64,000 bases of DNA from an uncultured Chloroflexia bacterium (GTDB lineage: Bacteria; Chloroflexota; Limnocylindria; Limnocylindrales; CSP1-4): the NCBI GenBank assembly GCA_963764515.1, contig CAVXSS010000002.1, forward strand, positions 480,052 to 544,051, written 5' to 3'. The notes beneath the pieces were generated by a model, which had not been told where the DNA came from, made no database searches, and worked only from the letters and a program-made list of their open reading frames with translations. Shown here piece after piece: positions 7,946 through 64,000 of this stretch; the first letter of the stretch is position 1; the number at the start of each line of letters is the position of its first letter. The translations under genes were made by a program, and so were the position numbers.

Positions 7946-8002
7946 CGCTCAAAGCATCGCACGGTGGCCGTGGCCGACGTGCAGCCCGCGCGGGCGGGGA
8001 GG

Positions 8003-9022: not shown

Positions 9023-9086
9023 AGCGTGCTAGTCCAAATAACCTTGACTTTGGCCTAATCAACTATAGCAACCAAGGTGCATTCAC

Positions 9087-9221
9087 ATGGCAGCTCTGAT
9101 CGTTGTAGCCGTCGTCACGGTGTTGTCCGGTCTTGCGATGTTCGCTTCGCGTCTGGGCGTGGACAGTCGCGACGACTTCTCCGAGGCGTATCGCGTCGTG
9201 GGTCCCATCGGCCTTCACTGA
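9087..9221 (+). CDS. Possible 44-aa small membrane peptide, MAALIVVAVVTVLSGLAMFASRLGVDSRDDFSEAYRVVGPIGLH
   Basis: An ATG-initiated ORF lies in an AT-richer intergenic stretch. A TTGACT -35-like hexamer (~9044) and TATAGC (~9064) sit upstream. The product has one hydrophobic helix. It is too short to appear in the ORF track. Confidence 0.25.
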   Translation: MAALIVVAVVTVLSGLAMFASRLGVDSRDDFSEAYRVVGPIGLH

Positions 9222-9395
9222 CCGACATCCGACCAAAACCAGGGCGTCCCCCTTCCGACGCTCCCTTCACTCGTCAGCCCGTTGGCGCGCAGGCCGCGGG
9301 CTGACGGATTCTCAGGACCAACGGGATGGCCACTCCGATCCCGACTAGCGTGGCCCCACCGATGCCGTCCACGCCAGCAAGACCGTGCGCGACCG

Positions 9396-45594: not shown

Positions 45595-46707
45595 CTACGG
45601 AACCGCCGCTGTGGCCAGCCGGGCCGGCCGGCCGGTGAACGCGCCGTACTCTTCCACGGCCTTCGCGAGACCCTCGTGAACCGGGCCGGGCAAACGGGCG
45701 AATGGGGCCGCCTCGATGACGATCTCGCGGGCGCGAAGGGTCCGTTTCCAGGTGCCCACGACCTCGCCGTCGACCACGATCGTGGGCTTGAACATCCCGT
45801 TGCCGCCCGGGACGATCGCCTCGCTGTGCTCGCGTGCCAGGGCGGCCGTTCGATCCCCGTAGCCGAGCAGGTACTCGTCGAAGCCCGGCAGGAGGTGGAC
45901 ACGGGCGATCGGCGCGGCCCCGTCAAGGGTCTCCGGCCCAAGGTGGTACGTCACGCCATCGAGCTCGAGGGTCGCAAGCGTCGCTCCGCAGATCCCGATG
46001 CCGCGTCGCGCGTCCCCGACGGTCAAGCCCGACCACCGGGCGAGGTCGGCAGCGGTGGCCGGTCCGTGGCTTCGGAAGTAGCGCAGTGCGAGTTCGCCGA
46101 GCGCCTCGTCACCAGCGAGCCGCCGCGGCTGTGGCACCCAGTCGTCGAGCAGCGCGAACGTCTGCTGCCTGCCAACGGTTGCTCCGAGGACGAGCGTGCC
46201 GCTCTGAGCGAGCGACCAGAGGAGGTGATAGCCGCGCTGGCCGAGGGTGCTGACGCCGCCCGCACCGAAGGTGGCGAGAAGCGCGTCTCGCGTCAGGACC
46301 CGACGGCTGGACAAGGCTGACCGGGCGATCTCGCGGGCCTTCTCGACGTCTGCCTCCGTGATCCCGAGAGCGGCCCGGCGTCCGGCGGCCGACGCGGTCG
46401 CCCGGGGTGCCGTGAGCGCCAGCAGCCACCCGAGGTCCTCGCTCGCCACGAGGTGGAGCGTGCCGCGCAGGGGCCAGGAGCGCACGATCTCACCGGCGTC
46501 ACAGGCCGTCTCGACCGCAACCTCGGTCGCGCCGGTCTGGCGGATGCCGACCGACCACTTGACGCCCGGGAAGTCCTGGGCCTGAAAGGCCAGCATCCAG
46601 CGGACGACGTCCAACGGCCTCGAGAGCTCACCTCTGCCGATGTGCTGGGCGACCATCCGGAGCGCCGTCAGACGCTGGCGGCTCGGCGTAAAGGCGGATC
46701 CGGACAT
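45595..46707 (-). CDS. Winged-helix DNA-binding domain protein of the AlkZ/YcaQ-like (DUF1006) family
   Basis: The 370-aa product reads MLAFQAQDF...WPLRGTLHLV...FRSHGPATAADLARWSGL.... The family assignment rests on the overall pattern and is moderate. Confidence 0.55.
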   Translation of the reverse strand: MSGSAFTPSRQRLTALRMVAQHIGRGELSRPLDVVRWMLAFQAQDFPGVKWSVGIRQTGATEVAVETACDAGEIVRSWPLRGTLHLVASEDLGWLLALTAPRATASAAGRRAALGITEADVEKAREIARSALSSRRVLTRDALLATFGAGGVSTLGQRGYHLLWSLAQSGTLVLGATVGRQQTFALLDDWVPQPRRLAGDEALGELALRYFRSHGPATAADLARWSGLTVGDARRGIGICGATLATLELDGVTYHLGPETLDGAAPIARVHLLPGFDEYLLGYGDRTAALAREHSEAIVPGGNGMFKPTIVVDGEVVGTWKRTLRAREIVIEAAPFARLPGPVHEGLAKAVEEYGAFTGRPARLATAAVP

Positions 46708-46825: not shown

Positions 46826-46910
46826 GTGGCTTCCTTTCCGTCGGTGCTTCGCCAGGTCGTCGAAGGACGCCTGATAGACTTCGCGCCGCGGGCGGGAGTA
46901 GCTCAGTTGG
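46826..46910. repeat. Left copy of an ~85-bp imperfect direct repeat (43-bp perfect core cgcctgatagacttcgcgccgcgggcgggagtagctcagttgg at 46868-46910)
   Basis: The sequence matches 58579-58666, with 5 mismatches in the 20 nt before the core and gapped similarity further upstream (shared gtcggtgg). The shared stretch also produces the spurious common peptide QLSYSRPRREVYQA in two track ORFs. Confidence 0.7.
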
Positions 46911-46964
46911 CCGTCCCGAGCCGGAAACCGTCTTGTGCACGCACCGCCGAATGGCTCGACGTCG

Positions 46965-49900: not shown

Positions 49901-52900
49901 TGTCGGCCACCGCGGGCAGGCTGTTGAGCGGCGCGTCGTTCACGGCGTTGACGCTGATCGTGACCGTGACCACGTTGGAGTCGCGGAGGCCGTCATTGGC
50001 CTTGTAACTGAACGAGTCGGTGCCGTTGAAATCCCTGCCGGGCAGGTACGTGAACGAACCGTCGGCGCTGAAGTTGAGGTAGCCGTTGGCCACATCGGAA
50101 ACGAGCAGTGCCGTCAACGGGTCGGACTCCGGGTCCGTGTCGTTGGCGAGCACGCCAGTGCCGACGGCCACAGTCAGCAGCGCGTCTTCGTTGACCGAGT
50201 AGCCGTTGGCGACGGCCGTCGGGGCGACATCGGCGACGACCGTGATCGCGACGTTGTCCGTGTCGCTCAGCGATCCACCGGGGCCGGTGTTGCCCTGGTC
50301 GTTGGTAACGATCTGGAGATTGGCCGAGCCGACATAACCGGCCGTCGGGGTGTAGGTCATGCCCGCCAGCGCGGCGTTGATGTTGGCGAGCGTGCCGGTG
50401 AAGGTCATGGTGCTGTCGGCAGAGCCGGTCCCAACAGTGAACGCCAGCCCGGTCGTGCCGGAAAGGGTCAGGGTTCCGTTCGTGACGGTTAGCTGCTCCT
50501 GCACGCTTGCTGCCCCAGCGTCCACGTCGGAGACGGAGACAAGATTGCCGTTGGCCGTGGAGAAGACGAGGGAGTTATGCGTAGCCTGCGCACCCGGCAC
50601 GCCATTGATGGGAGCGTCGTTGACGGCCGTCACGGTGATGCCGCGCGTGGCGGTGTTGCTGTTCGATGAGCCGTCGTTGGCGACGAACGTGACGGTCCGG
50701 GCGAGCGTGCTGGGTGCATCGCTGGTGTTGGTGTAGGTGATCGACCGGAGGGCCGTCTGGTAGAAGGCCTTGGTCGCACCGCCGGTCAGGGCGAGGACAC
50801 CCGTACCGGCGGTCCAGGTGCCGGTGATGCCGTTCTGGTCGACGAAAGCGAGGGAGTCCTGGGGGTTGGCGTAATTGGTCGTCATCGTGATCGTCGCGGA
50901 GACGAGATTGGCCGAGTCGGCGTCGGTGACGGTGATGCCCGGGTCGAGCAGCACCGCGCCACCGTTCTCCGTGTAGGCCAGTGCGGCGACGGTGGTGGTG
51001 ACCACGGGTGCGGCAGTCGCGGGGTCGGCAATCGTCCAATCTGCGGCGGCAAAGACCGTGATCCCTGTCTGCTGAATCCAGTTGGCCGTCGCATCGCGGG
51101 TGGTGCTCGCCTTGGTGGGGTCCTGCTCGGCCCAGGTACCAGCCAGCTTCCAGAGGCCGACGACGCTCTCCGTGTTGCCGTTGAGCTCCGCGTCCAGGTA
51201 GTGGAGGCGGACCGTGGCCGTGAGCGCGCCGCCGCCGGTCGGCGTGAAGGTGTAGGTCCGGGTGACGGCCCCGGTCTTGGCGGCCGGTGCGGCCTTGACC
51301 AACTTGACCTTGAAGGCGGTCGGCGCGGTGCCGGAGTTGATGGTGATCTGGTTGTGCGGGTTGCCGAAGCAACGCATCGTCCCGGTGCCGATCGTCGTGC
51401 GGCTGACTCCGCCGGTGGCCGACAGGATCGAGGTCACGTCCGTCGTTCCGCTGCACGTCGCCGCAGAGCCGAGCGTCAAGACGTTGGCATTGCCGGCACC
51501 GGAGCCCGTCGAGAGGTCGCCGCTGTCGAGCGACAGCACGCCGTTGACCGTGGCATTTCCGGCCAGCGTCGCGCCGCTCCCGTTGTTCATCCTGAGGTGG
51601 CCATAGGTCACCGCGCTGACGGTTTGAGCCGCGCTCCCGGCGTACTCCACGGTCAGGTTGGTCAGTGTGGTGTTCGTGATCGTGTACTGGTTGCTGAAGC
51701 CGGCGGTGGCCGCCGTCCGCGTGACCTTGACCGTGCCGCTGCCGGTCAGCGTCCCCGAGCCGCTCATCACCGATGCGGCGGCAGGCGTGAACGTGCCACT
51801 GGCGCCGACGGTGAACGTTCCGTTGGCGGCGAAGTTGCCGGTGGCGGAAACGGCCGCTGAGGTGGCGATGGTGAGGCCCTGGAACGTGAGCGTCCCGGCG
51901 TTCGAGATCGATGAACCGTTGTTCATCGTGACGGTGCCGGCGGTTGCTGCCAGGACGGCCGAGGCGTTGACCGTCAGGGCGGTGGCCACGCCGAAGGTCG
52001 CGTTCGAGCTCACGTTGCTGCCGCTGATGACGAGGTTGCCGTAGACCTGGCTGCTGGCGAGCGCCGCCACGGCGGTCGTGGTGCCCGCATACTCGATCGT
52101 GCTGGTCGCGGCGACCGAATGCGTCGCGTAGCCCGCCGGGAACGTCCGCGTGCCGCCGATCTTGAGCGTCGCACCCGCGGCCACGGTGAGCGTTCCGGCG
52201 GGCACCGTTCCTGCAGCCAGCGCGGCCACTTCGACGCCGGTCAGACCGCGGTTGTAGATGCGGAAGTCGTCGACGCGTCCGTCGAAGTACGTATCGGCGG
52301 CGTACTGGGATCGGCCGATCCAGTTGTTGGCCGTGTTGCCCAGGCTCGACGGACCGAGCGTCATGCCGGTGTTCTGGCCCACCTGCGAGCCGTTCACGTA
52401 GAGCGTGCCCGTGTTGCCCGACTTGGTCACCGCCACGTGGACCCATTGGGCGATCGGCAACGCAGCTGTGCCATTGATGACCTGCTCGGTCCCGGCGCCG
52501 CCGGTGGTGATGGCAAAGCGGACGACGTTCGTGCTGCCGTTCTGCGCCGTCAGGAACATGTACGCGGTCGTGCCCGTGCCGTAATCGAAGATCCGCCGCC
52601 AAAGGCCAGTCGTGTCGCGCCGCACCCAGGTCGCGAAGGTGAAGTTGCTGAGCGTGCTGACGATGCCGGTCGGCATGGTGACGTGTTGGTTCGAGCCGTC
52701 GAGGTTGACGGCTTGTCCGATCTGACCGGTGGTGAACGTCGGGGTATTGACCAGCGTGCCATCGAGCCCGGCGCCGCCGCTGTCGGTAGCGTCGTTCTCG
52801 AACTCGTACCACGCGAAGAGTCCGGCCGCGCCGTTGTCGGCTTTGAACGTGCTGAGATCGAAGGTGCCGCCATCGATCCTCAGGTCGCCGATGACGCTCA

Positions 52901-53141
52901 CATCGGCGCCCAGTGTCAGCGTGCCGCTGGACTTGTTGACGACGAGGTCGTTGACCACCGCGGGAAGGCCGTTTCCGGTCGCCTGGGTGCCCGACCCGTT
53001 GTACGTATAGTTCGCGCCCGTCGAGTACGTGCGCGCGCCGGTGACCTGGACGTTCCCGCTCGCGCCGGAGCTGGTGATGCCGTTCGTAGACGTGATGCCG
53101 AGCGTCGCGCCGCTCGACAGGGTGAACGACCCGCGCCCCGG
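46965..53141 (-). CDS. C-terminal ~2058-aa segment (frame C) of a giant secreted subtilase-adhesin
   Basis: This is the ORF 46965..52958 extended upstream in-frame to the TGA at 53142-53144. It contains two LamG/concanavalin-like jelly rolls, repeated Ig-like modules, VNDAP Big_9/cadherin-like repeats and a distinct C-terminal domain. The LamG units read ...WVHVAVTKSGNTGTLYVNGSQ...FDGRVDDFRIYNRGLTGVEV... and ...WVRMTRIGSTFLAERSPDGVTW.... The Ig-like modules read ...GTCYRWVQTLADFAGN... and ...GNCYRWQLVVIDNVGN.... The repeats read ...TDPESDPLTALLV...TVTAVNDAP.... Confidence 0.75.
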   Translation of the reverse strand, partial: PGRGSFTLSSGATLGITSTNGITSSGASGNVQVTGARTYSTGANYTYNGSGTQATGNGLPAVVNDLVVNKSSGTLTLGADVSVIGDLRIDGGTFDLSTFKADNGAAGLFAWYEFENDATDSGGAGLDGTLVNTPTFTTGQIGQAVNLDGSNQHVTMPTGIVSTLSNFTFATWVRRDTTGLWRRIFDYGTGTTAYMFLTAQNGSTNVVRFAITTGGAGTEQVINGTAALPIAQWVHVAVTKSGNTGTLYVNGSQVGQNTGMTLGPSSLGNTANNWIGRSQYAADTYFDGRVDDFRIYNRGLTGVEVAALAAGTVPAGTLTVAAGATLKIGGTRTFPAGYATHSVAATSTIEYAGTTTAVAALASSQVYGNLVISGSNVSSNATFGVATALTVNASAVLAATAGTVTMNNGSSISNAGTLTFQGLTIATSAAVSATGNFAANGTFTVGASGTFTPAAASVMSGSGTLTGSGTVKVTRTAATAGFSNQYTITNTTLTNLTVEYAGSAAQTVSAVTYGHLRMNNGSGATLAGNATVNGVLSLDSGDLSTGSGAGNANVLTLGSAATCSGTTDVTSILSATGGVSRTTIGTGTMRCFGNPHNQITINSGTAPTAFKVKLVKAAPAAKTGAVTRTYTFTPTGGGALTATVRLHYLDAELNGNTESVVGLWKLAGTWAEQDPTKASTTRDATANWIQQTGITVFAAADWTIADPATAAPVVTTTVAALAYTENGGAVLLDPGITVTDADSANLVSATITMTTNYANPQDSLAFVDQNGITGTWTAGTGVLALTGGATKAFYQTALRSITYTNTSDAPSTLARTVTFVANDGSSNSNTATRGITVTAVNDAPINGVPGAQATHNSLVFSTANGNLVSVSDVDAGAASVQEQLTVTNGTLTLSGTTGLAFTVGTGSADSTMTFTGTLANINAALAGMTYTPTAGYVGSANLQIVTNDQGNTGPGGSLSDTDNVAITVVADVAPTAVANGYSVNEDALLTVAVGTGVLANDTDPESDPLTALLVSDVANGYLNFSADGSFTYLPGRDFNGTDSFSYKANDGLRDSNVVTVTISVNAVNDAPLNSLPAVADTSKGVTLVFSSANGNPISISDSDAAAATVQVQLTGTNGTVSLSGTGGLSFAFSDANGTGAGDGTADATMTFRGTIGNINAALAGTSFIPTSTFSGAATLQVVTKDLGNTGSGGNLTDTDSIAITVYALGIFTTNGDVGTTGIVGSTTFSGGTYTVKGGGADIWGTTDAFQFVYRTMTGDGQLTAKVLAVQNTAVSAKGGVMFRDTTGATSAMALADIEGTAGAESIYRATTGASATGTVLGGISAPYWVRMTRIGSTFLAERSPDGVTWTAVGATQTITMGSTINVGLVVTSHVAGTLNTSTFDNVSFDTTAPTADFTTPNEGTTTLQAATSYTIAWTESDGSGIGVATTGGRSLQRWKGSQSSPGSCAATAWSTDGAPSTAVSSVAQSPLVTGTCYRWVQTLADFAGNAAGSTSGAVLIDTTAPSQPNVTGSGTNVYQSSPNSAIWFKGGATGTISLSSSSTDPASGINKHNYGALSAGTGWTYASGDVAGNPAARNATWTASSATTNITVTPYNNVLTAGATRTVTLTADAIAPSMTFSIPVAGLTTQSATSVTVTWSETETGSGVASRSLQRQKGGVVTPGTCASVSYANDGAPDTGSSPRNHIGLVNGNCYRWQLVVIDNVGNSSTPTVSGAVLIASAPTAVADSYTTREDTTLVVPITGTPYNGVLFNDTDPDTDPLSAILVSNVATGALVLNANGSFSYAPVANANGAVTFTYKANDGTFDSNTVTATITVTAVNDVPSFTKGADQTVRQEAAAQSVGGWATAITTGPVDEAGQVVDFLVTNDNNPLFSSQPAVGATGTLAYAPAAGAAGIATVSVRIHDDGGTANGGVDTSAVQSFVIIVSDGAYTSTSSWSTSFDSSRYLKLTFPAYVPAGSVVTGATFRHTYRSATVGDTTCYYFEVYDGATLLATHGSPGSPLSCNAASAYASDAVALPEIDSVAKANNVSIKMFVRNSGGRPSQHKTATLGITSSLD

Positions 53142-53251
53142 TCAAGGTCGTCGTCGTGCCGGCCATCTGGAGCGTCGCGCCGCTGTCGACGATGAAGGCG
53201 ACGTCGTTCGAGACGGTCCCGCCTGACGCGTACGTCTGCACACCCGACCCG

Positions 53252-55780
53252 TTAAAGGTGACGCTGCTCGTGGTGCTCGTGCCGGTCTCGGTCAGCGTTC
53301 CGCCTGAATGGGTGAAGTCGCCGGCGACGTTGAGCGTCACGCTCGCCGCCGATTCGATCGCTGAAGTCGAACGACCCGCTCGAGAGCGAGAAGTTGCCGC
53401 TGACGGACATCGCACGAACGCCGGTGCCGATCGTCCCGCGCAGCGTGCCACCCGTCTGGGAGTAGTCGCCGCCCACGGCCAGGTCACCCGCGGCGTTGTT
53501 GCCCAGTGCGAGCGCGCCGGTGGTGCCGGTACTGGTGACGGTCATGTTCCCGTTCACCGTCCGGAGGTAGCCGCCGAGGCTGAAGGTCGTGGTCTGGTTC
53601 GGGGTGTTCCAGACGAAATCCCAGAACGACTGATTATAGCCGATGTCCGAGGCGCCGCCGCCTGGCGGCGAGGTGTAGCCGACGATCTCGATGGTCGAAC
53701 CCGCGCTCCATGTGGCGGTCGGGATGACGCCGTCCGCCGTCGTCCACGCGTGCTGGTACCGGCCGCCGCTGTTGACGACGATCGTGGCGCCGGTGTTGAT
53801 GGTCACCGTCCCGGCGCTACGGAACGTGCCGGTCACCGACAGGTCGGTACCCGCCCCCGCGTTCAGCGTCAGCGTGATGCCGCTGTTGAGGTCGAGCTCG
53901 CCGCCCGCATCGACGACGACCTCGTCCGCCGTCACGTTGGCAGCGACGGTCACGATGTGGGCGTTACGGATCGTGATCGTGCTGGCCGCATTGGTCGGCG
54001 CGAGGGTCGCGGTGCTCCACGTGACACAGCCGCCGGCGATCGGAGCGCTCTGCCAGGTGCCTGTCGTGGCCCAGTTGCCGCTGGCACGGGAGCGGAAGCA
54101 GTCGGTCGACGTGGAGGCCGCCACGTAGGGACCCACGAAGGGGCCACCGTCGGCGGCTCCGGTGTTGCCGGCCGGGGTGACCGGCTCCGTGGCGGCGTCC
54201 TGCGCCGCGCGAGCGAGGTCGAGGCGGCCGTTGCCGGTCTGGGCCCGCGTGCCGACGGCTGCCGCCGAGCGCGCCAGGCGGCCCACGATGACGGCGTTGC
54301 TGGCGGTGGTGTCGAGGGCCCAGAGGAGGGCCGCGGCACCGGCCACCTCGGCGGCGGCGGCGCTGGTGCCCGAGACGCTGGTGTACTCGTCGTCGGTGAG
54401 CGGGTCCGCGTCGGCGTTCGCGGCGGTGGTCAGGATGTCAACGCCGGGTGCCGCCAGGAAGGTCTGCGGTCCGTGGTTGCTGTCGGCCGCGAGGAGGTCC
54501 GCCTCGTCGGTGGAGGCAACGCCCATCACACCGCGATCGCCGGCGGGGTACGTCGGCGTTGTGACGCCGTCGTTGCCCGTCGCCGCGACGATGACCGCCC
54601 CGCCGTCCCAGGCGTAGTCGATCGCCGCCTGGAGCGCGGCCGAGTAGCCGGGGGCGGAGAACGCGAGGAGGATGACGTCCGCGCCATTGTCCGACGCGTA
54701 GAGGATGCCGCGGATGATGTCGCTGTCCTGGCCCGTTCCGTCCGCGGCGAGAACCGCGACCGGCATGACCCTGACGCCTGCCGAGCCGATGCCGGCGATG
54801 CCCTCGCCATTGTCGGTCGCCGCGGCCACGATGCCGGCCATCCACGTCCCGTGGCCGTTCGGGTCGGTCAGCGGGTCCGTGCCGACAAAGGATGCGCCTG
54901 GGATGGTCCGGCCGAGGAGATCCGGATGCGAGGCGTCGACTCCGGTATCGAGAACCGCGACCAGGGCCTCGCCGTCGGTCGGAACGCGGACCGATGGCCA
55001 GCCGATCCTTGGCAGCGACCACTGGTCCGCGTAGCGAGGGTCAGCCCCGACCGCCTCGACGGCGCGGGCGCGATCGAGCTCCACGTGCACCACGCCCGCG
55101 CGCGCGCGCAAGGCGGCCGCGCCGGCAGTAGCAGCTGCCGCCGGCAGCTCCACGACGGCGAGGCCGAGCGCGGGAACCGTCGAGACGATCATGGCGCCGC
55201 CTGTCGCCAGCGCGGCCGCCTGTTGTTGAGCCGACGTCCATCGATTGAAGGTCACGATGTAGCTCACGGGATTGGTCGTGACCGACGATGGCTCTGGCGG
55301 CGAGGATGCGCCCAGCGGAGAAGGCGCCTGCGTGAGGGGTGCGCCAGGAGCCGGGCCCGGTTCCGGCACGCCGCTCCCTTCGGGCAATGGCATCGGGCTC
55401 GGTTCCGGCGTGATGCTCGCTTCAGGCGGCGACTCTGGGTCAGGGGACGGCTCATCGGGAACGGCCGATGGGTCGACCTCCGGGGGTTCGGTCGGCGTGG
55501 GCTCGGCGGTCGGCGAGGGCTCGGCGGTCGGCGAGGGTTCGGCGGTCGGCGAAGGTTCGGCGGTCGGCGAAGACGACGGATTCGGGGCGACGGATGCGGC
55601 CATGTCGGACGGAACCGGGGTCGCAGGGTGGGCCGCGGTCACGGAGGCCGGCATCAGCACCGTCGCCACGTAGAGAGCGGCCAGCATGCCGGCTCGGATC
55701 CCGGCGGCGCGTGCAGCGCTGGACCGGAACCATCGGGTCCGGATCGACCGCTTCCGGATCATGGGATGTCGAGCCCCCAT
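53252..55780 (-). CDS. N-terminal segment (frame A) of the giant protein: Sec signal peptide, Pro/Ser/Glu-rich linker, S8 subtilisin-like protease domain, then beta-helix-like T/G/S-rich repeats
   Basis: The S8 catalytic triad is VAVLDTGVD (Asp), NGHGTWMAG (His) and SGTSAAAAEVAG (Ser). The last ~35 codons of this ORF (DRIGGERDAQRRRRL...) are post-frameshift noise. Confidence 0.8.
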   Translation of the reverse strand: MGARHPMIRKRSIRTRWFRSSAARAAGIRAGMLAALYVATVLMPASVTAAHPATPVPSDMAASVAPNPSSSPTAEPSPTAEPSPTAEPSPTAEPTPTEPPEVDPSAVPDEPSPDPESPPEASITPEPSPMPLPEGSGVPEPGPAPGAPLTQAPSPLGASSPPEPSSVTTNPVSYIVTFNRWTSAQQQAAALATGGAMIVSTVPALGLAVVELPAAAATAGAAALRARAGVVHVELDRARAVEAVGADPRYADQWSLPRIGWPSVRVPTDGEALVAVLDTGVDASHPDLLGRTIPGASFVGTDPLTDPNGHGTWMAGIVAAATDNGEGIAGIGSAGVRVMPVAVLAADGTGQDSDIIRGILYASDNGADVILLAFSAPGYSAALQAAIDYAWDGGAVIVAATGNDGVTTPTYPAGDRGVMGVASTDEADLLAADSNHGPQTFLAAPGVDILTTAANADADPLTDDEYTSVSGTSAAAAEVAGAAALLWALDTTASNAVIVGRLARSAAAVGTRAQTGNGRLDLARAAQDAATEPVTPAGNTGAADGGPFVGPYVAASTSTDCFRSRASGNWATTGTWQSAPIAGGCVTWSTATLAPTNAASTITIRNAHIVTVAANVTADEVVVDAGGELDLNSGITLTLNAGAGTDLSVTGTFRSAGTVTINTGATIVVNSGGRYQHAWTTADGVIPTATWSAGSTIEIVGYTSPPGGGASDIGYNQSFWDFVWNTPNQTTTFSLGGYLRTVNGNMTVTSTGTTGALALGNNAAGDLAVGGDYSQTGGTLRGTIGTGVRAMSVSGNFSLSSGSFDFSDRIGGERDAQRRRRLHPFRRNADRDRHEHHEQRHL

Positions 55781-56514
55781 GGGATGATCTCCGTTGTGGT
55801 GTCCGCGGCGTCGCGGAACATCACCGGATAGAGGGTGAAACCCTGGTAGGCGGTCGATCCGACGACGGTCGCCTGGTCGATGACCATCGCGGCGTTGCCG
55901 GACTCCTTGCCGAAGATGCGGACGCGCAGGTCGTTCGCGATCGAGGTCGTCGCCGCTGCCGGGATCGACGTCGAGAACGTCGTCGGGGTCGTTCCGGTGA
56001 CGCAGCCGACCGGGCTACCTGGACTGCCGTGCGTCCCGAGGACCGCGCCGGTCGAGATCCTCCGAACCTCGAAGTAGTAACACGCCTGGCCCGCCCCGCT
56101 GCTGGCAAGCCTGAGGTCGAACGTTGCGGCAGAGACGGCCACACCCGAGGCCAACGAATCGTTGAGGTCGAACTCGAGGTACCGGCCGGCCGCGAAGGTG
56201 CTCGACCAGGTCGACGTGGTCACGGTCAGGCCATCGCCCGAATAAGCGAACGAGTTGGAGCGGTCGACCTCGACGCCGGATGATGAATCGCCGACCTCGA
56301 ACGCGGGGGTGACGCGTTCGCCCGGGAACAACGCCTTTGACCCGAACAGGGCCACCCCCTCCGTTTGAGCCGTGAAGATGGCGAGGCTCAGTCCAACCAT
56401 GGCGAAAGCGATGGAGACAAGCGCGCCCACGGCCGCAAACACGATGACGGCACGGAAGCGGCGCCTCGGGGTGGCGATGCCGATCGCGTCTCGCCCTCCC
56501 GCTCGGGCGGTCAT
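55759..56514 (-). CDS. Exported TasA/camelysin-like small protein whose C-terminal ~135 aa is homologous to the C-terminal domain of the giant subtilase-adhesin
   Basis: The N-terminal TM/signal region is followed by LAIFTAQTEGVALFGS, resembling the TasA-type mature N-terminus. The C-terminal region ...GQACYYFEVRRISTGAVLGTHGSPGSPVGC... parallels ...TTCYYFEVYDGATLLATHGSPGSPLSC... at the giant protein C-terminus. It overlaps its neighbours by 4 and 22 bp. Confidence 0.6.
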   Translation of the reverse strand: MTARAGGRDAIGIATPRRRFRAVIVFAAVGALVSIAFAMVGLSLAIFTAQTEGVALFGSKALFPGERVTPAFEVGDSSSGVEVDRSNSFAYSGDGLTVTTSTWSSTFAAGRYLEFDLNDSLASGVAVSAATFDLRLASSGAGQACYYFEVRRISTGAVLGTHGSPGSPVGCVTGTTPTTFSTSIPAAATTSIANDLRVRIFGKESGNAAMVIDQATVVGSTAYQGFTLYPVMFRDAADTTTEIIPWGLDIP

Positions 56515-57062
56515 GGGACCCCTGCCTGCCGGGTAGCGCCGAATGACAGCGTCACGGTTGTAGTCGAGCCCTGGAGCCCGTTATCAGAATCCCACGGCAG
56601 GTCTGCCCGGAAGCACAGGATCTCGGCGGTTGCAGCGGGCAGCGGCCGGCCGTCGACTTCGTTGCCGAACGCCGCGTCATCGAGCGGGCCATCGAACAGG
56701 GTCATGCCGTCGAAGTCCGCGCAGGATGAGCCGATCGTCTTGATCGTGAGGAGCAGCGCCGCCGAGAGACGGTGTCCACCGACTGCCACGAGCCCACGGC
56801 GCATCGCGTACGTCACGGGTTCACGACCGGAGTTCGTCACGGTTATCGAGGCCGCGACCGAGTCTCCGGGAACCAAGTCGCGGGCCGACAGAGTCGCGTC
56901 TCGTGCGTCGGCACTGAGATCGATCGACGAGATCTCGAATCGGTCGGGGGCAGCCACGTCGGCGCGCGGCGGGCTGGATGTGACCGTCTTCCAGGTGAGC
57001 CACGCGCATGCGATCGATAGCACGACGATCAAGGTCACCGCAAGCCGCCGGCTTCGGGTCAT
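56511..57062 (-). CDS. Exported/membrane-anchored small protein (possible SipW-cognate substrate)
   Basis: The 183-aa product has an N-terminal TM segment (LAVTLIVVLSIACAWLTW) and is beta-rich and acidic. It sits between sipW and the TasA-like gene above, with 4-bp overlaps on both sides. Confidence 0.5.
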   Translation of the reverse strand: MTRSRRLAVTLIVVLSIACAWLTWKTVTSSPPRADVAAPDRFEISSIDLSADARDATLSARDLVPGDSVAASITVTNSGREPVTYAMRRGLVAVGGHRLSAALLLTIKTIGSSCADFDGMTLFDGPLDDAAFGNEVDGRPLPAATAEILCFRADLPWDSDNGLQGSTTTVTLSFGATRQAGVP

Positions 57063-57607
57063 GGCGCGATCGGCTCTCGGGCATCAGCCGGGATCGTGCG
57101 GGCGCGCGGCTCGAGCATTTCGAGGAGCACATGGAAGAGGAGGAGTGCGCCGAGGAGGCACAGCGCGGCGAGCACGCCGGGACCCTTTGACAGGAAGTCC
57201 TGGGCGTAGCCGGCGTACGGCACGTACCGGTCCGCGGCCCCGACGATCGCCCGACCGGGAACGAGGCTGGCGTCTGGATCCTGGTTGGCGTCGCCCTTCG
57301 TTTCGAAAAAGCGGCCTTCCGGCAGATCGACCACGCGACTCACGCGGTGGGTCACGACGACCTCGTTGTCGGCGCGGATCGTGATGACGTCGCCGACGCC
57401 GACCGTCATGACGTCGGTCGGGGTGACGACGACCAGGGAGCCGATCGGGATCGCGGGCTCCATCGAGCCGCCGACGACGACGAACAGCTGGTGGCCGGTG
57501 AGCGGTGCGAAACGGGTGAACAGAGCGAAGCTGATGAGGAGGACGAAAAGCGATATCCCGATGAGACCGACGGCCCGACGCGCGAGACGGGACGAGCTCA
57601 GGATCAT
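57059..57607 (-). CDS. sipW: Signal peptidase I, archaeal/SipW-type
   Basis: The product has an N-terminal TM segment, then the VVVGGSMEPAIPIGSLVVV catalytic-Ser motif (GSMEP) typical of SipW-type SPases, then ...GDANQDPD.... It also has a C-terminal TM (VLAALCLLGALLLF). Confidence 0.8.
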   Translation of the reverse strand: MILSSSRLARRAVGLIGISLFVLLISFALFTRFAPLTGHQLFVVVGGSMEPAIPIGSLVVVTPTDVMTVGVGDVITIRADNEVVVTHRVSRVVDLPEGRFFETKGDANQDPDASLVPGRAIVGAADRYVPYAGYAQDFLSKGPGVLAALCLLGALLLFHVLLEMLEPRARTIPADAREPIAP

Positions 57608-57679
57608 CGAGATCGCGCTCCATTCATGCGAGAGCGGTCCGACCGTCGGTCGGACCGCTCGGTGCTGCCGGGCGACGGC

Positions 57680-58255
57680 CTAGTTGTTCTGGGTTTGCTC
57701 GGCGTTGAAGGTGAAGGTCGTGACCGCAGTCGCGCCCTGGAACGTTTCGTCGGTGGCAAGCGGGAGGGAGACCCGGATGCAGAGCACGTCGGTCGCGGCG
57801 GCAGCCACGGTCCGATCGCCGGTTCCGTCAGTCGGTGAAACGCTGCCGAACATGACGTTCGAGGCGCCGAGCACTTCCGACGCCTGGAGGACCGTGCCAT
57901 CAAAGTCGTCGCACTTGACGAGCGGAGTGGTGGCGTCCACGGTCCTGACCTCAACGGTCAGGGCTGCGTTGAGCACGCCGCCGTTCGGGCCAGCCACGCT
58001 CGTCGACGTGGTGTTCAGCGAGTAGCGGAGCTCATTGGTCCCGACGTTCTCGACGTCGACTGAGCCGGTGTTGGAGTCACCAGGCATCATGTTGGCATTC
58101 GTGAGCGAGAGGGCGTCGATCTTCGTCGCGTCGAGGATGATCGTCCCCGCAGTGAACGTCCCGTCGACGGTCTCGGTGTCCGTGAACACGGCTAGGGACG
58201 TCGCCCCGACACCGATGCTCGCGACTGTGAGGGCGGCCCCGAGAGTGAGAAGCAT
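57680..58255 (-). CDS. TasA/camelysin-family (peptidase M73-like) exported protein with SipW-cognate-type signal peptide
   Basis: The ORF 57680..58813 was trimmed to the ATG at 58255. The 191-aa product reads MLLTLGAALTVASIGVGATSLAVFTDTETVDGTFTAGTIILDA..., matching the TasA-family signal peptide plus AxF(T/N)D mature N-terminus, and is beta-rich. It is the first gene of the sipW operon. Confidence 0.75.
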   Translation of the reverse strand: MLLTLGAALTVASIGVGATSLAVFTDTETVDGTFTAGTIILDATKIDALSLTNANMMPGDSNTGSVDVENVGTNELRYSLNTTSTSVAGPNGGVLNAALTVEVRTVDATTPLVKCDDFDGTVLQASEVLGASNVMFGSVSPTDGTGDRTVAAAATDVLCIRVSLPLATDETFQGATAVTTFTFNAEQTQNN

Positions 58256-58578
58256 GCGTCTGCGCTTGGTGTCCAAGGTGGTTCTCGTTTCTCTACATGC
58301 GTTGCGGTGGGTCGCCGAGCGATCGCCATGTCGCCGGCTTCGCCGGGGTCCTTGGCTCGCGCGGTCGATGCCATTACAGGACACGAAGGTGGTACCCGTA
58401 AGTACCCGAATTCCGCGCGACGTCAAAACTATCGAGTGCCGGCTGGTGCCGCGGCGGTCCATCGAACGTGATGCGCCGTTCAGATGGGCGTTGTCCGCGC
58501 ACGAGGGCCTTCGCGTGTTGCGTGGATGCCTACAGGATCGGGCACCGCTCGAAGCGCCCGATGTAGTACTGATGGCTG

Positions 58579-58666
58579 TCGGTGGTCGAGTGGTTGGTGT
58601 CTCGTTCGCCAGATCACCGAAGAGCGCCTGATAGACTTCGCGCCGCGGGCGGGAGTAGCTCAGTTG
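58579..58666. repeat. Right copy of the ~85-bp imperfect direct repeat (perfect core 58624-58666)
   Basis: See the left copy at 46826-46910. The two copies lie ~11.75 kb apart and bracket exactly the tasA-sipW-giant-adhesin operon. Confidence 0.7.
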
Positions 58667-58695
58667 GCAGAGCGGCAGCCTTCCAAGTCTCCCGC
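58644..58695 (+). other. tRNA-like minihelix: acceptor-stem-like 7 bp (GCGGGAG/CTCCCGC) enclosing a canonical D-arm (TA-GCTC-AGTTGGCA-GAGC) and 15 further nt; no anticodon or T arm could be folded
   Basis: The element starts inside the right repeat core. The left repeat copy keeps GCGGGAGTAGCTCAGTTGG but loses D-stem closure. This suggests a tRNA-gene remnant or tRNA-like attachment-site relic rather than a functional tRNA. Confidence 0.3.
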
Positions 58696-58917
58696 TGTCG
58701 AGCGTTGTGCTCTGATCACAGGATCCCCGCACAAATCGGCCGATTGGGGCCCAGTTTGACGCTCGGGTGCGACAGCGTATAAGTCGGCCACAGCGGATAA
58801 CTTCCTGGGACAATTGAGCGCTGTCTCGGGCCCCTGGATCGATGCCTGACGAAGGGATCGCGCGGTCCTCTTCAATGCCCGGGCCAATGGGCCTCTGGGG
58901 GCGGGACGGGAACCCCG

Positions 58918-60054
58918 CTAGTTGACGGGCTGTGATGCGAGCGTCGTGAGGTCGATGGTCTCGTCGCCAGCCACGACCGCGGCATCATATCTGCGCTGGA
59001 GGTTCGTCACGAGTCGAACCACCGTGTTGCCGCAGACTCCGGTCGACAGGTAGACCCGCAGCCACTCCGGAGTTATGTCCATGCGGAATTGCTGTCCGAC
59101 GTGAAGGTCAACGACTTCCGCCTCTGCGAACTGGTCGTTCACCAAGCGGGGGACGGCCCAAAGCCGGAACGGATCGCGACACGAGAAGAGGCCTGTCAGG
59201 AATTGACCCATATCATCGATCCGGCGACCGAAGCTGATCTGCAGGACGTGCCCCTCGAAGCCAAAGCCGCTTTGCTCAGAGCCCTCCCAGCCAATCGAGA
59301 AGTGCCGCTCGATGTGCCGTACCGCCTGGGCGTATGCCTGAACGGCGCCGGCCATGAAGCCCAAGTGGAGTTCGAAGGCGGCGCCACGGGCGGCGAAGCG
59401 CCCTTGATAGTGGGCTGCTTCGTCGACCACTCCGAGATCCGGATCGCGCATCCGAAGGGCCACTCCGCTTAAGGCTGTCGACAGGCGATACCGGTCGTCA
59501 CCGATGAGCTGATCGAGCAACTCATCCGCCGAATCGCCCTCAAGCTGCACCCGAAGACGCCGCGCGCGAACTCCCTCCAAGGGCAAGAGTTCGTCGCCCC
59601 GGAACTCCGACTTGAACCATCGCGGCTCACCGGCACCCTGCAACCCACGAAGGAACTGCCAGGGGAACCAGCACCAGTCAATGCCCCGTGACGACCAGAC
59701 TGCTCGTCGCAGCTGACCCTGCACGATTCCCGCGGGAGCCGCTGTATGAATCAACCAAAATCGTGGATCAAGGACGTCAACGAAGAGCCCAACGGAGTCA
59801 TCCCACAGAAGAGCCAAAGCTGGATCGTCGGTCCGAGACATCGAGAGGCCAAGTCTTCTCCCGAGGGCTGCGACAGCATCAAGAGGGTTAGGCTCTTCGT
59901 GCCCGGAGTTCACCTCTAGGGCATAGCTCTTGACCTCGCCTGCACGCAGCTCAAACGGAAGGCGATCGGGTTCTCGGCGCTGACCCGACATTGCTGCTGT
60001 CAGAAGACCAGCGATACCCTCGCGGTCGATCGGCACGGATGGGACAGCCGTCAC
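58918..60054 (-). CDS. Hypothetical 378-aa protein, no family recognisable by eye; lower-GC gene
   Basis: The ORF is intact and has GC of roughly 58-60% against ~70% in the flanking DNA. It begins 3 nt after the stop of the upstream gene, so it is operonic. It contains an RHIERH (Rx4H) stretch and a Trp-rich segment WCWFPWQF, but no confident motif. Confidence 0.55.
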   Translation of the reverse strand: MTAVPSVPIDREGIAGLLTAAMSGQRREPDRLPFELRAGEVKSYALEVNSGHEEPNPLDAVAALGRRLGLSMSRTDDPALALLWDDSVGLFVDVLDPRFWLIHTAAPAGIVQGQLRRAVWSSRGIDWCWFPWQFLRGLQGAGEPRWFKSEFRGDELLPLEGVRARRLRVQLEGDSADELLDQLIGDDRYRLSTALSGVALRMRDPDLGVVDEAAHYQGRFAARGAAFELHLGFMAGAVQAYAQAVRHIERHFSIGWEGSEQSGFGFEGHVLQISFGRRIDDMGQFLTGLFSCRDPFRLWAVPRLVNDQFAEAEVVDLHVGQQFRMDITPEWLRVYLSTGVCGNTVVRLVTNLQRRYDAAVVAGDETIDLTTLASQPVN

Positions 60055-60057
60055 GTC

Positions 60058-60984
60058 TTAGCCCTCCCCGCGCTCGATCTCTTGCCCGAGATCTTCAAAC
60101 GACATCTGCCCAGCAGGGACCCTGGCCGCCCTCGGTCTTCCTCTCAAGGTGCGCTCGGCTTTGCGCCGCATGCTCTGCCATCCCTGAGTCTCGCCTCTCG
60201 GATCGAAGGCAGCAGGTGACCGGAGGATACGGAGGACGCTGCCTTGGATGTCGGCGCCGCCAGGTTCAACCGACAAGTACTCGGTGAGCTCGCCCTCCGA
60301 CATTCGCCGGACGATGGTCGTCGCCCGGTCGCGCATTCTTGATCGGGCCCGCTGACCGTAAACGCTTGAGTAGGGAATGGCGGCGGCCAGCAGGCTGTCG
60401 AAGGTGATGACCGTTTCTCCTCGCGCGGCGGCGGCGACTATAGCAGGAAGGAGAACCTCCCTGAGCTCCTCATCTGGGCTGTCAGCGTCCACTGGGATCA
60501 ACCGTGGTGGGGGACCGGCCGGGACGTTCACTTCGAACGGCGTCAGCACACTGCTACCCCTCGTCTCCAGCTTCACGCTCGAAGAGCCAATCACCAAGAG
60601 AGGAGCCTGAAAGCCAATAGCGCGAAGGCCGGTCACAACTCGCTCTTGCGACTCCTCGAGACAGGCATAGAGGGGCTGCACAATCGCTCCGGTGGGAGGA
60701 AACGGAAGGGTTACGTTTCGAGCGACGTTGTCCGCGGTCATGACCTCGTATCGTTGGGCTTGATCAGCCTCGACGTTGTTGCCGCTCTTGCACTCCGTCG
60801 GCAGAAGGATCTGTCGATCAGCGTTGAGTCCGAGCCCGTCGACAACCACGGACGTGCGTGAGGTGGAGATGGGAATCTCGAACCGCTGGATGCGGAAGCC
60901 TTGGTCACGAAGGGGAGCGGGCCAACCACCTTCGCCTGTCAGTAGGGCGATCCAGGCGTTGAGCGGGATCAGACGTGGTTCCAC
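60058..60984 (-). CDS. Hypothetical 308-aa protein with N-terminal PD-(D/E)xK nuclease-like motif (VVVDG...ILLPTECK); lower-GC gene
   Basis: It has a GTG start. The beta-strand-D then ExK arrangement, ~13 residues apart, mirrors the HsdR nuclease motif seen in this window (DVILFVNGLPLVLIELK). The C-terminal ~150 aa are unassigned. Confidence 0.5.
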   Translation of the reverse strand: MEPRLIPLNAWIALLTGEGGWPAPLRDQGFRIQRFEIPISTSRTSVVVDGLGLNADRQILLPTECKSGNNVEADQAQRYEVMTADNVARNVTLPFPPTGAIVQPLYACLEESQERVVTGLRAIGFQAPLLVIGSSSVKLETRGSSVLTPFEVNVPAGPPPRLIPVDADSPDEELREVLLPAIVAAAARGETVITFDSLLAAAIPYSSVYGQRARSRMRDRATTIVRRMSEGELTEYLSVEPGGADIQGSVLRILRSPAAFDPRGETQGWQSMRRKAERTLRGRPRAARVPAGQMSFEDLGQEIERGEG

Positions 60985-61075
60985 TCGTTGGGTCGCCTAA
61001 CGCCCAACGAGGGTAGTTGCGGACCGGCTTTCTAGAACATATGTGCTAATCATACTCCCGACCGTTCCTTCCGCA

Positions 61076-63990
61076 TCACTCGGGTGGCCGCTCCGCGACC
61101 GCCAAGAGATCGGTAGCGTGCTCAGCGGCTACCGGGTACTCGACGATCGGCGGTTCTGACGGCGGCTCCGTGCCCCACGCCGCCGACAAGACCTCCGCCT
61201 GCTCAAGGACGGTCTGCGTGGCCTTGGTCTGCTTGTCCGGCGGGTAGCCGTACTTGCGCAGGACGCGCTTGACGATTAGGCGGAGCTTGGCGCGGACGCT
61301 CTCCTTCTCGGCCCAATCGATCGTCGTGTTGCGTCGAACGGTTGAGACAAGCTCGCGGGCGATGGTCCGTAGAGTGTCGTCGCCGAGCACGGCGACCGCG
61401 CTGTCGTTCGTCTCTAGGGCGTCGTAGAAGGCGAGTTCGTCGTCGCTCAAGCCGAGCTTCCCGCCGCGCTCTTTGGCCTCGCGGATCTCGCGGGCGATCT
61501 CGATCAGCTCTTCGATGACCGCCGCCGTCTCGATCGCCCGGCTCTGGTACTTGCGGAGCGACCGCTCGAGCATCTCAGAGAACGCTCGCGACTCAACGAG
61601 GTTCCGGCGCGACCGGATCTTGATCTCGTCGGTGAGCAGCTTCCGCAGGAGTTCGACTGCCAGGTTCCTCTGAGGTAGGTCGCGGACCTCTGCCAGGAAC
61701 TCGTCGGACAGGATCGAGATGTCCGGCTTTGGGAGACCGGCCGCCGCGAAGACGTCGATGACCTCCTCACTGACGATCGCGCCGGCGACAATTTGGCGCA
61801 CGGCGTGCTCGATCTCGGCCGGCCCACGCTTGCCCTCCGCCGGGCCTTTGGGCAGCGCGGCACGGACGGCCTGGAAGAAGGCAACCTCATCCCGGAGCGC
61901 GAGCGCACCCTCGTGCGGGACGGCGAGAGCAAAGGCCCTCGACAGGGCGCTCACGCTGGCGAGCAAGCGCTCGCGACCATCCACCTGCGCCAGGACGTAC
62001 TCGAGTGCGGCCGGCAAGACCGACAACCGTTGGGTCGGGGTACCGGTGAAGAACTTCGAGCGGTCGAAGCCGTGGAACAAGCGCGGCCACGACCTCGTAC
62101 TTCTCGTGAAAGACGGCGACCGCCTCGGCCTGGTCGATGGCGGTGGTGCCCTTGCCGCCGCTTCGCGTGTAGTCGGCCATCGCGCGGCGGAGCTGATCGG
62201 CGACGCCGAGGTAATCGACCACCAGGCCGCCCGGCTTGTCCCGATAGACACGGTTGACGCGCGCTATCGCCTGCATCAGGCCATGGCCGCGCATCGGCTT
62301 GTCGAGGTACATCGTGTGCAGGCTCGGCGCATCGAAGCCGGTCAGCCACATGTCCCTCACGATGACGATCCGGAACGGATCCTCGGGATCGCGGAACCGG
62401 CGGGCGAGCACCTCGCGCCGAGCCTTGCTTCGGATGTGCGGCTGCCATGGGAGCGGATCGGATGCCGAGCCAGTCATCACGACCTTGAGCGCGCCCTCGA
62501 CATCGGTCTTGCCGGCCCACTGCGGTCGGATGCGGACAAGCTCGTCGTACAGGTCGACGGCTATTCGCCGGCTCATGGCGACGATCATCGCCTTTCCCTC
62601 GAGGGCATCGACACGCTGCTCGAAGTGCTCGACCAGGTCGGCGGCGACGAGCGACAGGCGCCTGTCGGTCCCGACTAGCGCCTCCAGCGCCGCCCATTTC
62701 GACTTGATCTTCTCCTTGGCGGCGGTCTCCTCGCCCTCGGTTACCTCATCGAACTCGGCGTCGATCCGCGGCTTCTGCTCCTCGGGCAGATCGAGCTTGG
62801 CCAGACGGCTCTCGTAGTAGATCGGGACAGTTGCCCCGTCGTCAACCGCGCGGCTGATGTCGTATACGTCGATGTAGTCGCCGAAGACGGCTGGTGTGCT
62901 GCGGTCGGCGAGCTCGATCGGCGTGCCGGTGAAGCCGATGAACGTCGCGTTCGGCAGCGCGTCGCGGATGTTCTTGGCGAAGCCATAGGACAGGTGCGCC
63001 GTACCGTCTCGGCGCTCAACTACGTGTGCACCGAAGTCGTATTGGCTGCGATGGGCCTCGTCGGCGATAACCACGACGTTGCGCCGATCGGTCAGTAGCG
63101 GGAAATGGTCGCCAATTTCGTCCGGCAGGAACTTCTGGATGGTCGTGAATACGACACCGCCGGCGGCGACCGCGAGGAGCCGCTTGAGATGGGCGCTCGA
63201 CTCGGCCTGGATCGGCTCCTGGCGAAGCAGCTCGGCGCACTGGGCGAAGGTCGACGAAGAGCTGGTCGTCGAGGTCGTTGCGGTCGGTGATGACGACGAT
63301 CGTCGGGTTCTCGAGCGCTGGCTCGAGCACCAGGCGTCCGGCGAAGTAGGCCATCGTCAGGCTCTTGCCCGAGCCCTGGGTGTGCCAGACGACGCCTGCT
63401 CGCTTGTCGCCGTCGGGTCGACTGGCCGTGATGGCCGCCTCGATCGCGTGGTTGACGGCGTGGAATTGGTGGTACCCGGCGAGCTTCTTTGACACGCCAG
63501 CCGGCTCGTCGGCGAAGACCAGGAAGTGACGGAGGTAGCCGATCAGGCGGTCGGGGGCGAGAAGGCCACGGATGAGGACCTCGAGCTCGGTGACGTTCGC
63601 GGGCGCGAGGTTCGCGCCGTCGATCGTCCGCCAGCGCATGAACCATTCGCGACCGGATGTCAGCGAGCCGAAGCGGGCCTCGACGCCGTTCGAGGCGACG
63701 AGCAATTCGTTGTACCCGAAGATCGTCGGGACCTTCGCCTTGTAGGTCTGGAGCTGGTTGAACGCCGACCAGATGTCGGCGCTCTCGGTTGTCGGGTCCT
63801 TGAGCTCGATCAAGACGAGCGGCAGTCCGTTGACGAAGAGGATGACGTCGGGCCGGCGGTTCTCGCCCGCCTCGACGATCGTGAACTGGTTGACCGCCAG
63901 GAAGTCGTTCGCGGCGGGCCGATCGAAGTCGAGGAGACGGATCCGCTCGCCCGCGATCCGCCCGTCGCCAGCGGCGTACTCGACCTCCAC
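61076..63990 (-). pseudogene. hsdR: Type I restriction enzyme R subunit (HsdR), N-terminus beyond the window end, disrupted by two single-base frameshifts
   Basis: Three consecutive track ORFs in different frames together give a colinear HsdR: a nuclease motif FVNGLPLVLIELK; helicase motif [16 protein letters not shown]; [14 protein letters not shown]; motifs III-VI ...IGFTGTP...; and the C-terminal helical domain. The frame switches at ~63245-63252 (LDDQLFVD|FAQCAELL) and ~62078-62086 (YEVVAA|[11 protein letters not shown]). Confidence 0.8.
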
Positions 63991-64000
63991 GCCGTCGACG

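Follow-up and report, generated by a model that had tools for sequence, protein, structure and literature searches.

What is a tRNA-like sequence doing at the exact border between an 11.7-kb gene cassette and a low-GC module in the chromosome of an uncultured member of the Limnocylindria (Chloroflexota)? The question arises from a 64,000-nt stretch of DNA (the whole of which we call the window), for which an earlier note, made from the sequence alone, had described a minihelix with a 7-bp acceptor-like stem and a perfect D-arm but with neither anticodon arm nor T arm, and had offered two explanations: a degraded tRNA gene that had served as an attachment site, or a tRNA-like structure used as a recombination or RNA-processing signal. 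The first of these was essentially right, as a sister strain carries the intact gene and lacks the island. With a probability of about 0.9, nucleotides 58649-58687 are a displaced 5' fragment of the host tRNA-Gly(UCC) gene, lying at the left junction (attL) of a genomic island. Such a fragment is an ordinary integration scar, from the less common kind of event that leaves the 5' half of the gene behind.

The segment at 58649-58695 reads GCGGGAG TA GCTC AGTTGGCA GAGC G GCAGC CTTCCAA G T CTCCCGC. The bases of the 7-bp stem and of the D-arm are present as had been listed, the acceptor 5' strand GCGGGAG occupying 58649-58655 and being followed by TA (U8/A9 of the tRNA), and the full D-arm (GCTC-AGTTGGCA-GAGC) occupying 58658-58673. 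The companion claim, that the 15 nt downstream can form neither an anticodon arm nor a T arm, stands only in part: G26, the 5' strand of the anticodon stem (GCAGC, positions 27-31), the anticodon loop CTTCCAA (positions 32-38, at 58680-58686, with the anticodon TCC at 58682-58684) and G39 are all genuine tRNA sequence, and positions 40-76 are the sole part of the tRNA missing at this site. The fragment, on the plus strand, spans gene positions 1 (58649) to 39 (58687); it is an end fragment that reaches the terminus of the gene and forms the host side of attL.

When the first 38 nt were used as an exact query against one genome per species, more than 119 stretches were found, nearly all of them in class Limnocylindria of the Chloroflexota. 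At about 108 of the 120 loci, the 38-mer runs on as GCTGCATGTCGCG(A/G)GTTCGA.C...CGTCTCCCGCTCCA, which is a normal 76-nt tRNA-Gly(UCC); because of this continuation into an intact gene, the fragment can be identified as the exact 5' part of the tRNA-Gly(UCC) of the clade, severed just past the anticodon loop. At least 108 relatives match it at 38 of 38 nt, well above chance. A complete tRNA gene, which would have made this an ordinary tRNA locus, was not found: ARAGORN reports neither a tRNA nor a tmRNA anywhere in the 64-kb window, and Rfam at gathering score (RF00005 included) gives no match in the window. A permissive Rfam scan of 58400-58900 does return a tRNA at 58649-58731 with 22.6 bits (threshold 29, E = 0.027), a score reached only by inserting 9 nt into the anticodon loop and 22 nt into the T region; we rejected this match as a gene, since the insertions are threaded through island DNA. 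Compared with an ordinary bacterial tRNA-Gly(UCC), the locus is identical over positions 1-39 (39 of 39 nt) to the functional gene of the sister strain, but it lacks positions 40-76, scores 22.6 rather than 68.8 bits and is not called by ARAGORN. The displaced half is probably without function.

A comparison with an intact tRNA at the syntenic site, which had been suggested as a check, could be made with a sister strain (ENA ERZ25039539 contig_16962, loci L001 and L140) that carries the AlkZ-like protein of the window and is 99.6-99.75% identical to the window, i.e., not the same sequence. Locus L140 aligns with window positions 47054-58687 at 99.63% identity; its last matching base, 58687, is exactly the G of tRNA position 39. 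In order, L140 has the same cassette, the same upstream block, an intact tRNA-Gly(UCC) (called by ARAGORN; 68.8 bits in Rfam) and, after the tRNA end ...CTCCCGCTCCA, the sequence ACGTCCCCTGGAGTCCGCG-ATG of a glycoside hydrolase family 3 (GH3) gene (the flank carries ..CTCCCGCTCCAACGTCCCCTGGAGTCCGCGATG..). From 58688 on, the window departs from the sister strain, and a search for the GH3 right flank of L140 found it nowhere in the window. With the site intact and free of the island in one strain and occupied in the other, it follows that foreign DNA was inserted in the tRNA gene of the window's strain, between positions 39 and 40.

The foreign DNA is the left part of a strain-specific genomic island (58688-64000) that is absent from the sister strain and runs off the end of the window. 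Its GC content is 0.62-0.66, against 0.67-0.73 elsewhere in the window. The original placement of the tRNA-like sequence between the cassette and a low-GC module was correct. The island carries, on the minus strand and with gene content read from a near-identical copy (L121), an MJECL33-like gene (58918-60054), an MJECL32-like gene (60058-60984) and the HsdR subunit of a type I restriction system, the last in three frameshifted ORFs (61076-63990 and beyond). In L121, which is 99.7% identical to window positions 58694-64000, the gene order is HsdM, HsdS, HsdR (1,067 aa), an MJECL32-family protein (308 aa, identical to that of the window), an MJECL33-family protein, a short non-coding stretch and a Phage_integrase gene. 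The window and L121 each carry indels that the other lacks, and many of the frameshifts may be long-read assembly errors.

The non-coding end of the island, or P' arm (58688-58917, plus strand), is 97.8-99.7% identical to L121, where the arm abuts the integrase gene (about 165 nt from it). Within the arm lie CTCCCGC (58689-58695), which had been read as the acceptor 3' strand, an invariant palindrome GAGCGTTGTGCTC / GAGCGYTGTGCTC (58700-58712), the arm-type repeats ACAGCGTATAA (58772-58782) and ACAGCGGATAA (58790-58800), and GAGCGCTGTCTC, with an inverted partial copy of the arm repeat (58816-58827). The two copies of the arm-type motif ACAGCGNATAA at 58772-58782 and 58790-58800 are the only ones in the 64 kb, where 0.01 would be expected; L121 has two on the same arm and two, inverted, on the other arm between the junction and the start of the integrase. 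The P' arm is kept behind 14 other displaced tRNA-Gly halves.

No integrase gene lies in window positions 58688-64000, the window ending inside the island. The integrase of L121 is itself broken twice by frameshifts (the gene is on record on one contig only), and L121 joins the P and P' arms without exactly 59 nt: GAGCACAAACTCGA, tRNA 1-38 and GTCTCCC. We considered L121 as the intact attachment site of the island and rejected it, since this 59-nt core with the tRNA half is absent; L121 is either a deletion derivative or an assembly artefact. The island copy in L121, and perhaps that of the window as well, may be immobile. No flank shared between L121 and the sister chromosome was found.

Relatives supply the parts of the system that lie outside the window. 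The int-A integrases form a large, XerD-like family of about 316 aa, and a full-length homologue (P0005) matches Pfam Phage_integrase at 6e-25 and has N-terminal SAM-like domains too. In L025 and L062, a full-length integrase of this family lies 135-142 nt upstream of an intact tRNA-Gly(UCC), divergent from it; in L023 and L114, a frameshifted one plus a P arm lies directly upstream of an intact tRNA-Gly. The arm between integrase and tRNA-Gly bears the same repeats (TTATCCGCTGT / TTAGACGCTGT). In L142, the full-length integrase (P0005) is followed by the P arm, tRNA 1-38 and then GTCTCACTTTGCCGAGCGCTGTGCTCTGA..., which belongs to the arm family of the window from 58688 onward, and L030/L033/L128 and L136 have P-arm-type sequence, a tRNA half and a P' arm in the same order. 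Because P arm, tRNA 1-38 and P' arm follow one another in L142, L030/L128 and L136, the attachment site of the element itself contains the tRNA 5' half; the matching tRNA portion is found in these loci and is missing from L121. One metagenome-assembled genome holds both a displaced half with a window-type arm (L047) and an integrase with an intact tRNA (L062).

The break itself is recurrent. In species-representative genomes, the identical break (after CCAA-G) is seen in 10 further copies of the 38-mer, and at least three unrelated families of downstream arms follow the break; a junction scan of JGI metagenomes yielded 11 more junctions of the window's family, some of them on slightly different tRNA-Gly sequences. 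That several arm families share one breakpoint argues for site-specific recombination at or beside the anticodon loop, and the block of identity runs from the 5' end of the tRNA gene to that loop. Whenever a single contig holds both copies, the half precedes the intact gene, upstream of it and in the same orientation, at a distance of 3.1 kb (L015), 17.3 kb (L094/L024) or 60.6 kb (L080/L058), and L005/L082 and L142 also fit. About 25 other genomes or metagenome contigs carry a tRNA-Gly half broken at this base.

The model that we propose is as follows. An int-A tyrosine integrase (of the XerD-like family) would join the attachment site of the island to the tRNA gene by recombination at or beside the anticodon loop, with strand exchange probably taking place within the loop. 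Elements of this type bring their own copy of tRNA 1-38, placed between an integrase-proximal arm (P) and a distal arm (P'). After insertion, the left end would consist of host upstream sequence, the old 5' half, the P' arm and cargo, and the far end of integrase, P arm and the element-borne 5' half fused to the host 3' half. The island should then close, outside the window, with an intact tRNA-Gly gene behind the integrase and P arm, the predicted order being integrase, P arm (TTATCCGCTGT repeats, ..GAGCACAAACTCGA), GCGGGAG...CCTTCCAAGCTGCATG...CTCCCGCTCCA and ACGTCCCCTGGAGTCCGCGATG (GH3). The window's copy of the island presumably entered by way of its own integrase and not via homologous recombination.

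What, then, of the strand that appeared to close the acceptor stem? Because it lies beyond the breakpoint, CTCCCGC (58689-58695) is island DNA, but its presence is no isolated accident. The start of the arm reads GYCYCCCKYT in 15 distinct junctions of the window's family (a loosely conserved motif, GYCYCCCKY), and in 12 of the 15 a 7-mer at the same offset is able to pair with GCGGGAG at 6-7 positions. In addition, GTCTCCCGCT equals tRNA positions 64-73 in 10 of 10 bases, and in P arms GAGCGYTGTGCTC recurs as an inverted copy (GAGCACAA) immediately upstream of the element-borne half. We favor two explanations for this start: it may be an integrase core half-site (an inverted copy of GCGGSAG, also found at tRNA 24-30), or it may go back to a tRNA 3' end that an ancestral element had captured. 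We are less inclined to a third, selection for closure of an RNA. The conserved, acceptor-complementary start of the island arm is the sole mildly intriguing residue of this locus.

A bolder reading takes the sequence of the arm start (GYCYCCCKYT/GTCTCCCGCT) to be no accident: this family of elements would carry an acceptor stem, a D-arm and the anticodon 5' half as one deliberately closed mini-tRNA module. We regard this as improbable; if it were true, the closed module would make of the displaced half a foldable RNA that is RNase P-processable or quickly degraded, or else a structured recognition site for the integrase.

Less probable again is a tRNA-like minihelix with a function of its own, in which the 47-nt segment would be transcribed from the promoter of the tRNA, closed by the CTCCCGC of the island and serve as a signal for RNA processing or recombination. 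With an intact host upstream block, transcription into the arm is plausible, and the complementary block is a feature of the family (90% of stem cells are pairable at the same offset in an alignment, A2, of 13 related junctions). The 7-bp stem is also kept in the predicted minimum-energy structure of the 47-mer; that structure, however, loses the D-arm, and its energy (-19.5 kcal/mol) is only marginally better than that of shuffled controls (z = -2.24, with 5 of 200 shuffles equally good); longer stretches gave no significant result. The structural significance over shuffles that the earlier note had asked for is, in other words, there for the 47-mer, but it is marginal and belongs to a fold without the D-arm. 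In A2, the 5' strand never varies, so that covariation is not assessable; the commonest first pair is G-U, none of the pairs changes on both sides across the 13 sequences, and the changes that are seen break pairs in 9 cells (5 at C2, 3 at A6 and 1 at G4) with no compensating change. There is no match to an Rfam family, and the sister strain has an ordinary tRNA at the same site. Known tRNA-like structures and minihelices are acceptor-stem mimics used as RNA signals, and a GC-rich 7-bp stem with tRNA acceptor sequence can likewise be drawn here, but this one lacks a T-arm mimic, a 3' CCA context and covariation, and its 3' strand is mobile-element DNA joined on by recombination. With a closing strand that is island arm, an anticodon stem and loop that are present after all and a fold barely better than shuffles, the idea of a purpose-built minihelix finds no support.

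There is a comparably slim chance that an integrase did make the scar, but elsewhere, the island and both of its junctions having then been imported from a relative by homologous recombination through the flanks. In L121, the island copy nearest to this one, the integrase is frameshifted and the core is absent, the window's island differs from L121 by only 0.3%, and tandem arrays and integrase-less remnants are common at this site (L015, L033/L128, L142), all of which would suit an import, although many of the frameshifts may be long-read assembly errors. The remaining alternative, a tRNA pseudogene that decayed in place, losing positions 40-63 to an internal deletion and so fusing its 5' half with the acceptor 3' end, has on its side the 10 of 10 identity of 58687-58696 (GTCTCCCGCT) with tRNA positions 64-73 of the intact gene and the cloverleaf that the permissive Rfam scan threads through 58649-58731 at 22.6 bits, but it can be dismissed almost entirely, as GCT is not followed by the native 3' flank (CCAACGTCCCC...), which the window lacks, the DNA after the break is island 99.7% identical to L121, the same arm stands behind displaced halves at 14 other loci with its first bases varying, and the sister-strain comparison contradicts it outright, with more than 5 kb of island genes where that strain has GH3.

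The integration scar is not the only trace of tRNA-Gly in the window. A left repeat copy had been said to share the first 20 nt of the structure and then to diverge, and this was confirmed: the shared 19-20 nt lie at 46892-46911, within a 64-nt direct repeat (46848-46911 and 58605-58668) whose copies are 92% identical, with the last 44 nt exact, and 11,757 nt apart (0 matches in shuffles). The left copy, on the plus strand, is made up of a stump of a second integrase gene, int-U (46848-46891), and tRNA-Gly positions 1-20 (46892-46911), breaking off in the D-loop; the minus strand of the stump reads ..PRREVYQASFDDLA.. This copy lies next to the AlkZ-like gene (45595-46707, minus strand), is 97.6% identical to a block upstream of tRNA-Gly in L105, and is present in the sister strain too (L001). 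The right copy of the block, which we call U (58605-58648, minus strand), is likewise a decayed tyrosine-integrase stump, its minus-strand translation reading ..PRREVYQALFGDLA.., with weaker homology to the int-U N-terminus back to about 58548.

The 44-nt U recurs upstream of tRNA-Gly in at least 14 relatives, the DNA further upstream being unrelated. Its minus strand encodes ..PRREVYQA(S/L)F(D/G)DLA.., the N-terminus of the second tyrosine integrase, and L016 1203-2042 (MDKPADPATPFAEVYQAFLDDLALEG.. / MDKPADPATPFAEVYQAFLDDLALEGMKPSTIHRY...) matches Pfam Phage_integrase at 5e-14. About 13 relatives have stumps of int-U upstream of tRNA-Gly and divergent from it; one of them is L105, whose U is 97.6% identical to that of the window. 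Because U encodes the int-U N-terminus and such stumps also occur in relatives, U is what is left of an older integrase gene that had this mirrored layout too; we had considered U as a plain host tRNA promoter and rejected this, as it is the N-terminal stump of a decayed integrase gene. A consensus scan of U found no sigma-70-type promoter; TGATAGACT in U looks like an extended -10 element and may act as the tRNA promoter. In L086, an AlkZ-like gene 90% identical to that of the window lies beside an intact tRNA-Gly with an int-U stump and, since AlkZ there adjoins an intact tRNA-Gly, the AlkZ-tRNA neighborhood is ancestral.

Between the two repeat copies lies the cassette (46912-58604, minus strand), an 11.7-kb operon common to both strains for which Pfam matches identify a cadherin/Ig-like adhesin (46965-52958), an S8 subtilase (53252-55780), a SipW-like signal peptidase (57059-57607) and a camelysin/TasA-like protein (57680 to about 58276), together with a 251-aa and a 183-aa protein, all encoded on the minus strand. 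No integrase is found among the cassette genes. Homologous operons occur in L146 and L147 in other neighborhoods, with no tRNA piece beside them, and the cassette proteins have no match in the 120 tRNA-Gly loci. The other arm family (GCTCAATGCCAGG...), sought in the window to test whether the cassette is an int-U island, gave no match. That the left copy stops at tRNA position 20 may be due either to an older island scar having been trimmed by deletion or to one-sided illegitimate recombination. Whichever it was, the event predates the split of the two strains, and the restriction island is younger.

How does this locus compare with known systems? In Islander (PMC4383910), islands are bounded by a tRNA gene and by a displaced fragment, anticodon-centered ("A") sites are one class, and a 5' fragment is required to be upstream of the regenerated gene; the displaced piece is a 5' fragment in 159 of 3,919 islands and a 3' fragment in the other 3,760. 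The present locus resembles this 5'-displaced subclass in that an entire tRNA gene has been split and what it lost is brought along as a copy by the element, that the displaced end fragment is the island boundary (upstream of the regenerated gene and in the same orientation in relatives), and that, in related loci, an integrase gene adjoins the attachment site, both arms bear arm-type repeats and tandem arrays occur. It differs in its host, an uncultured member of the Limnocylindria (Chloroflexota), in that only the left junction lies in the window, and in that the nearest island copy (L121) is without the core. The int-U gene, for its part, recalls the SSV1/Mx8-type integrases that reach or cross the attachment site (PMC4383910): in L016-type loci its start is about 157 nt away from the tRNA, and its N-terminal stump abuts the tRNA 5' end in the window. 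Unlike in that type, no int-U frame was seen to cross the crossover site, the int-U copies here being stumps only.

Islands with a displaced 5' tRNA fragment have already been catalogued, and what is seen here is otherwise ordinary mobile-element biology in a little-studied phylum. We know of no earlier description of this integrase family or of its arm sequences. For annotators, tRNA halves of this kind are scars and not novel RNAs, and programs that find islands by seeking only 3' tRNA fragments would miss the islands that leave them. The fragment fixes, at 58687/58688, the exact left boundary of a strain-specific defense island, with a type I restriction system and an MJECL32/33-like pair, in an uncultured soil/freshwater member of the Chloroflexota. 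Beyond this one strain, tRNA-Gly(UCC) is a recurrent integration hot spot in the Limnocylindria clade, used by two integrase families that both have the rarer, 5'-half-displacing layout.

In the cassette (46912-58604), the S8 protease and the cadherin/Ig-like adhesin are encoded on the minus strand as separate ORFs of 842 and 1,997 aa (46965-55780); in the sister strain (L001, 933-9743) the two form a single unbroken ORF of 2,936 aa. The split in the window could be due either to a real disruption or to a long-read indel error. The S8 protease gene region also carries a tandem repeat of about five copies of an 18-nt unit, CGGTCGGCGAGGGCTCGG (55489-55578), which probably encodes a proline/glutamate-rich linker.

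Within the integrated island, HsdR, a subunit of the type I restriction enzyme, is broken into three overlapping ORFs (61076-63990, minus strand), with single-base indels in the region at about 62082 and 63255, whereas in L121, the closest copy of the island DNA, it is one gene of 1,067 aa (6706-9909). The MJECL33-like gene of L121, in turn, runs past its own stop into the att arms, and both assemblies seem to contain either indel errors or pseudogenes. In the window, the MJECL33-family (PF25924) and MJECL32-family (PF27326) genes (58918-60984, minus strand) directly adjoin the type I restriction-modification genes of the island, and are a candidate defense-associated pair; a search of a local copy of Pfam with the pair returned no match, and the family labels rest on precomputed annotations. 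At the L121 junction (12288), the integrase-side and distal arms are joined to each other, and the 59-nt core with the tRNA half is missing (compare L142, 9785-9900). The L121 integrase has two frameshifts; this copy of the island may be either an element that has lost its activity or the result of misassembly.

Junction units are arranged in tandem in L033 (at 4028 and 6473 as oriented), L128 and L030, in the order integrase-side arm, tRNA half and arm, followed after 2.4 kb by a second half and the same arm. The second half has two D-loop substitutions and is preceded by a promoter-like sequence. The tandem points to integration having occurred repeatedly, or to the entire junction unit having been duplicated. 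A similar remnant of 2.4-3 kb is found on two unrelated contigs (L015, 4194-7253; L142, 7384-9798) between a displaced half and an intact tRNA-Gly; it has no integrase, and its genes encode an ECF sigma factor and a beta-propeller/Kelch protein.

A block of about 157 nt (GTGTCCATGTCGAGGCTCCGAGTGCCTCGGCTGACCTG...CGTCAACCCC...CCTCGG) is conserved between tRNA-Gly and the start codon of int-U, the second tyrosine integrase, at L086 (1054-1210) and at L016, L075, L083, L017, L019, L039, L052, L082, L106 and L109. The 44-nt int-U stump in the window looks like this region with the block deleted. A second arm family (GCTCAATGCCAGGTCATGCCGGGTG...) occurs 3' of tRNA positions 1-41 in the displaced halves of L005, L042, L094 and L040, the island of L094 carrying a TIR/NTPase/WD40-like gene. 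Since the partners of this arm family are intact genes with int-U-type sequence upstream (L082, L024, L039), the int-U integrase family shares the mirrored layout.
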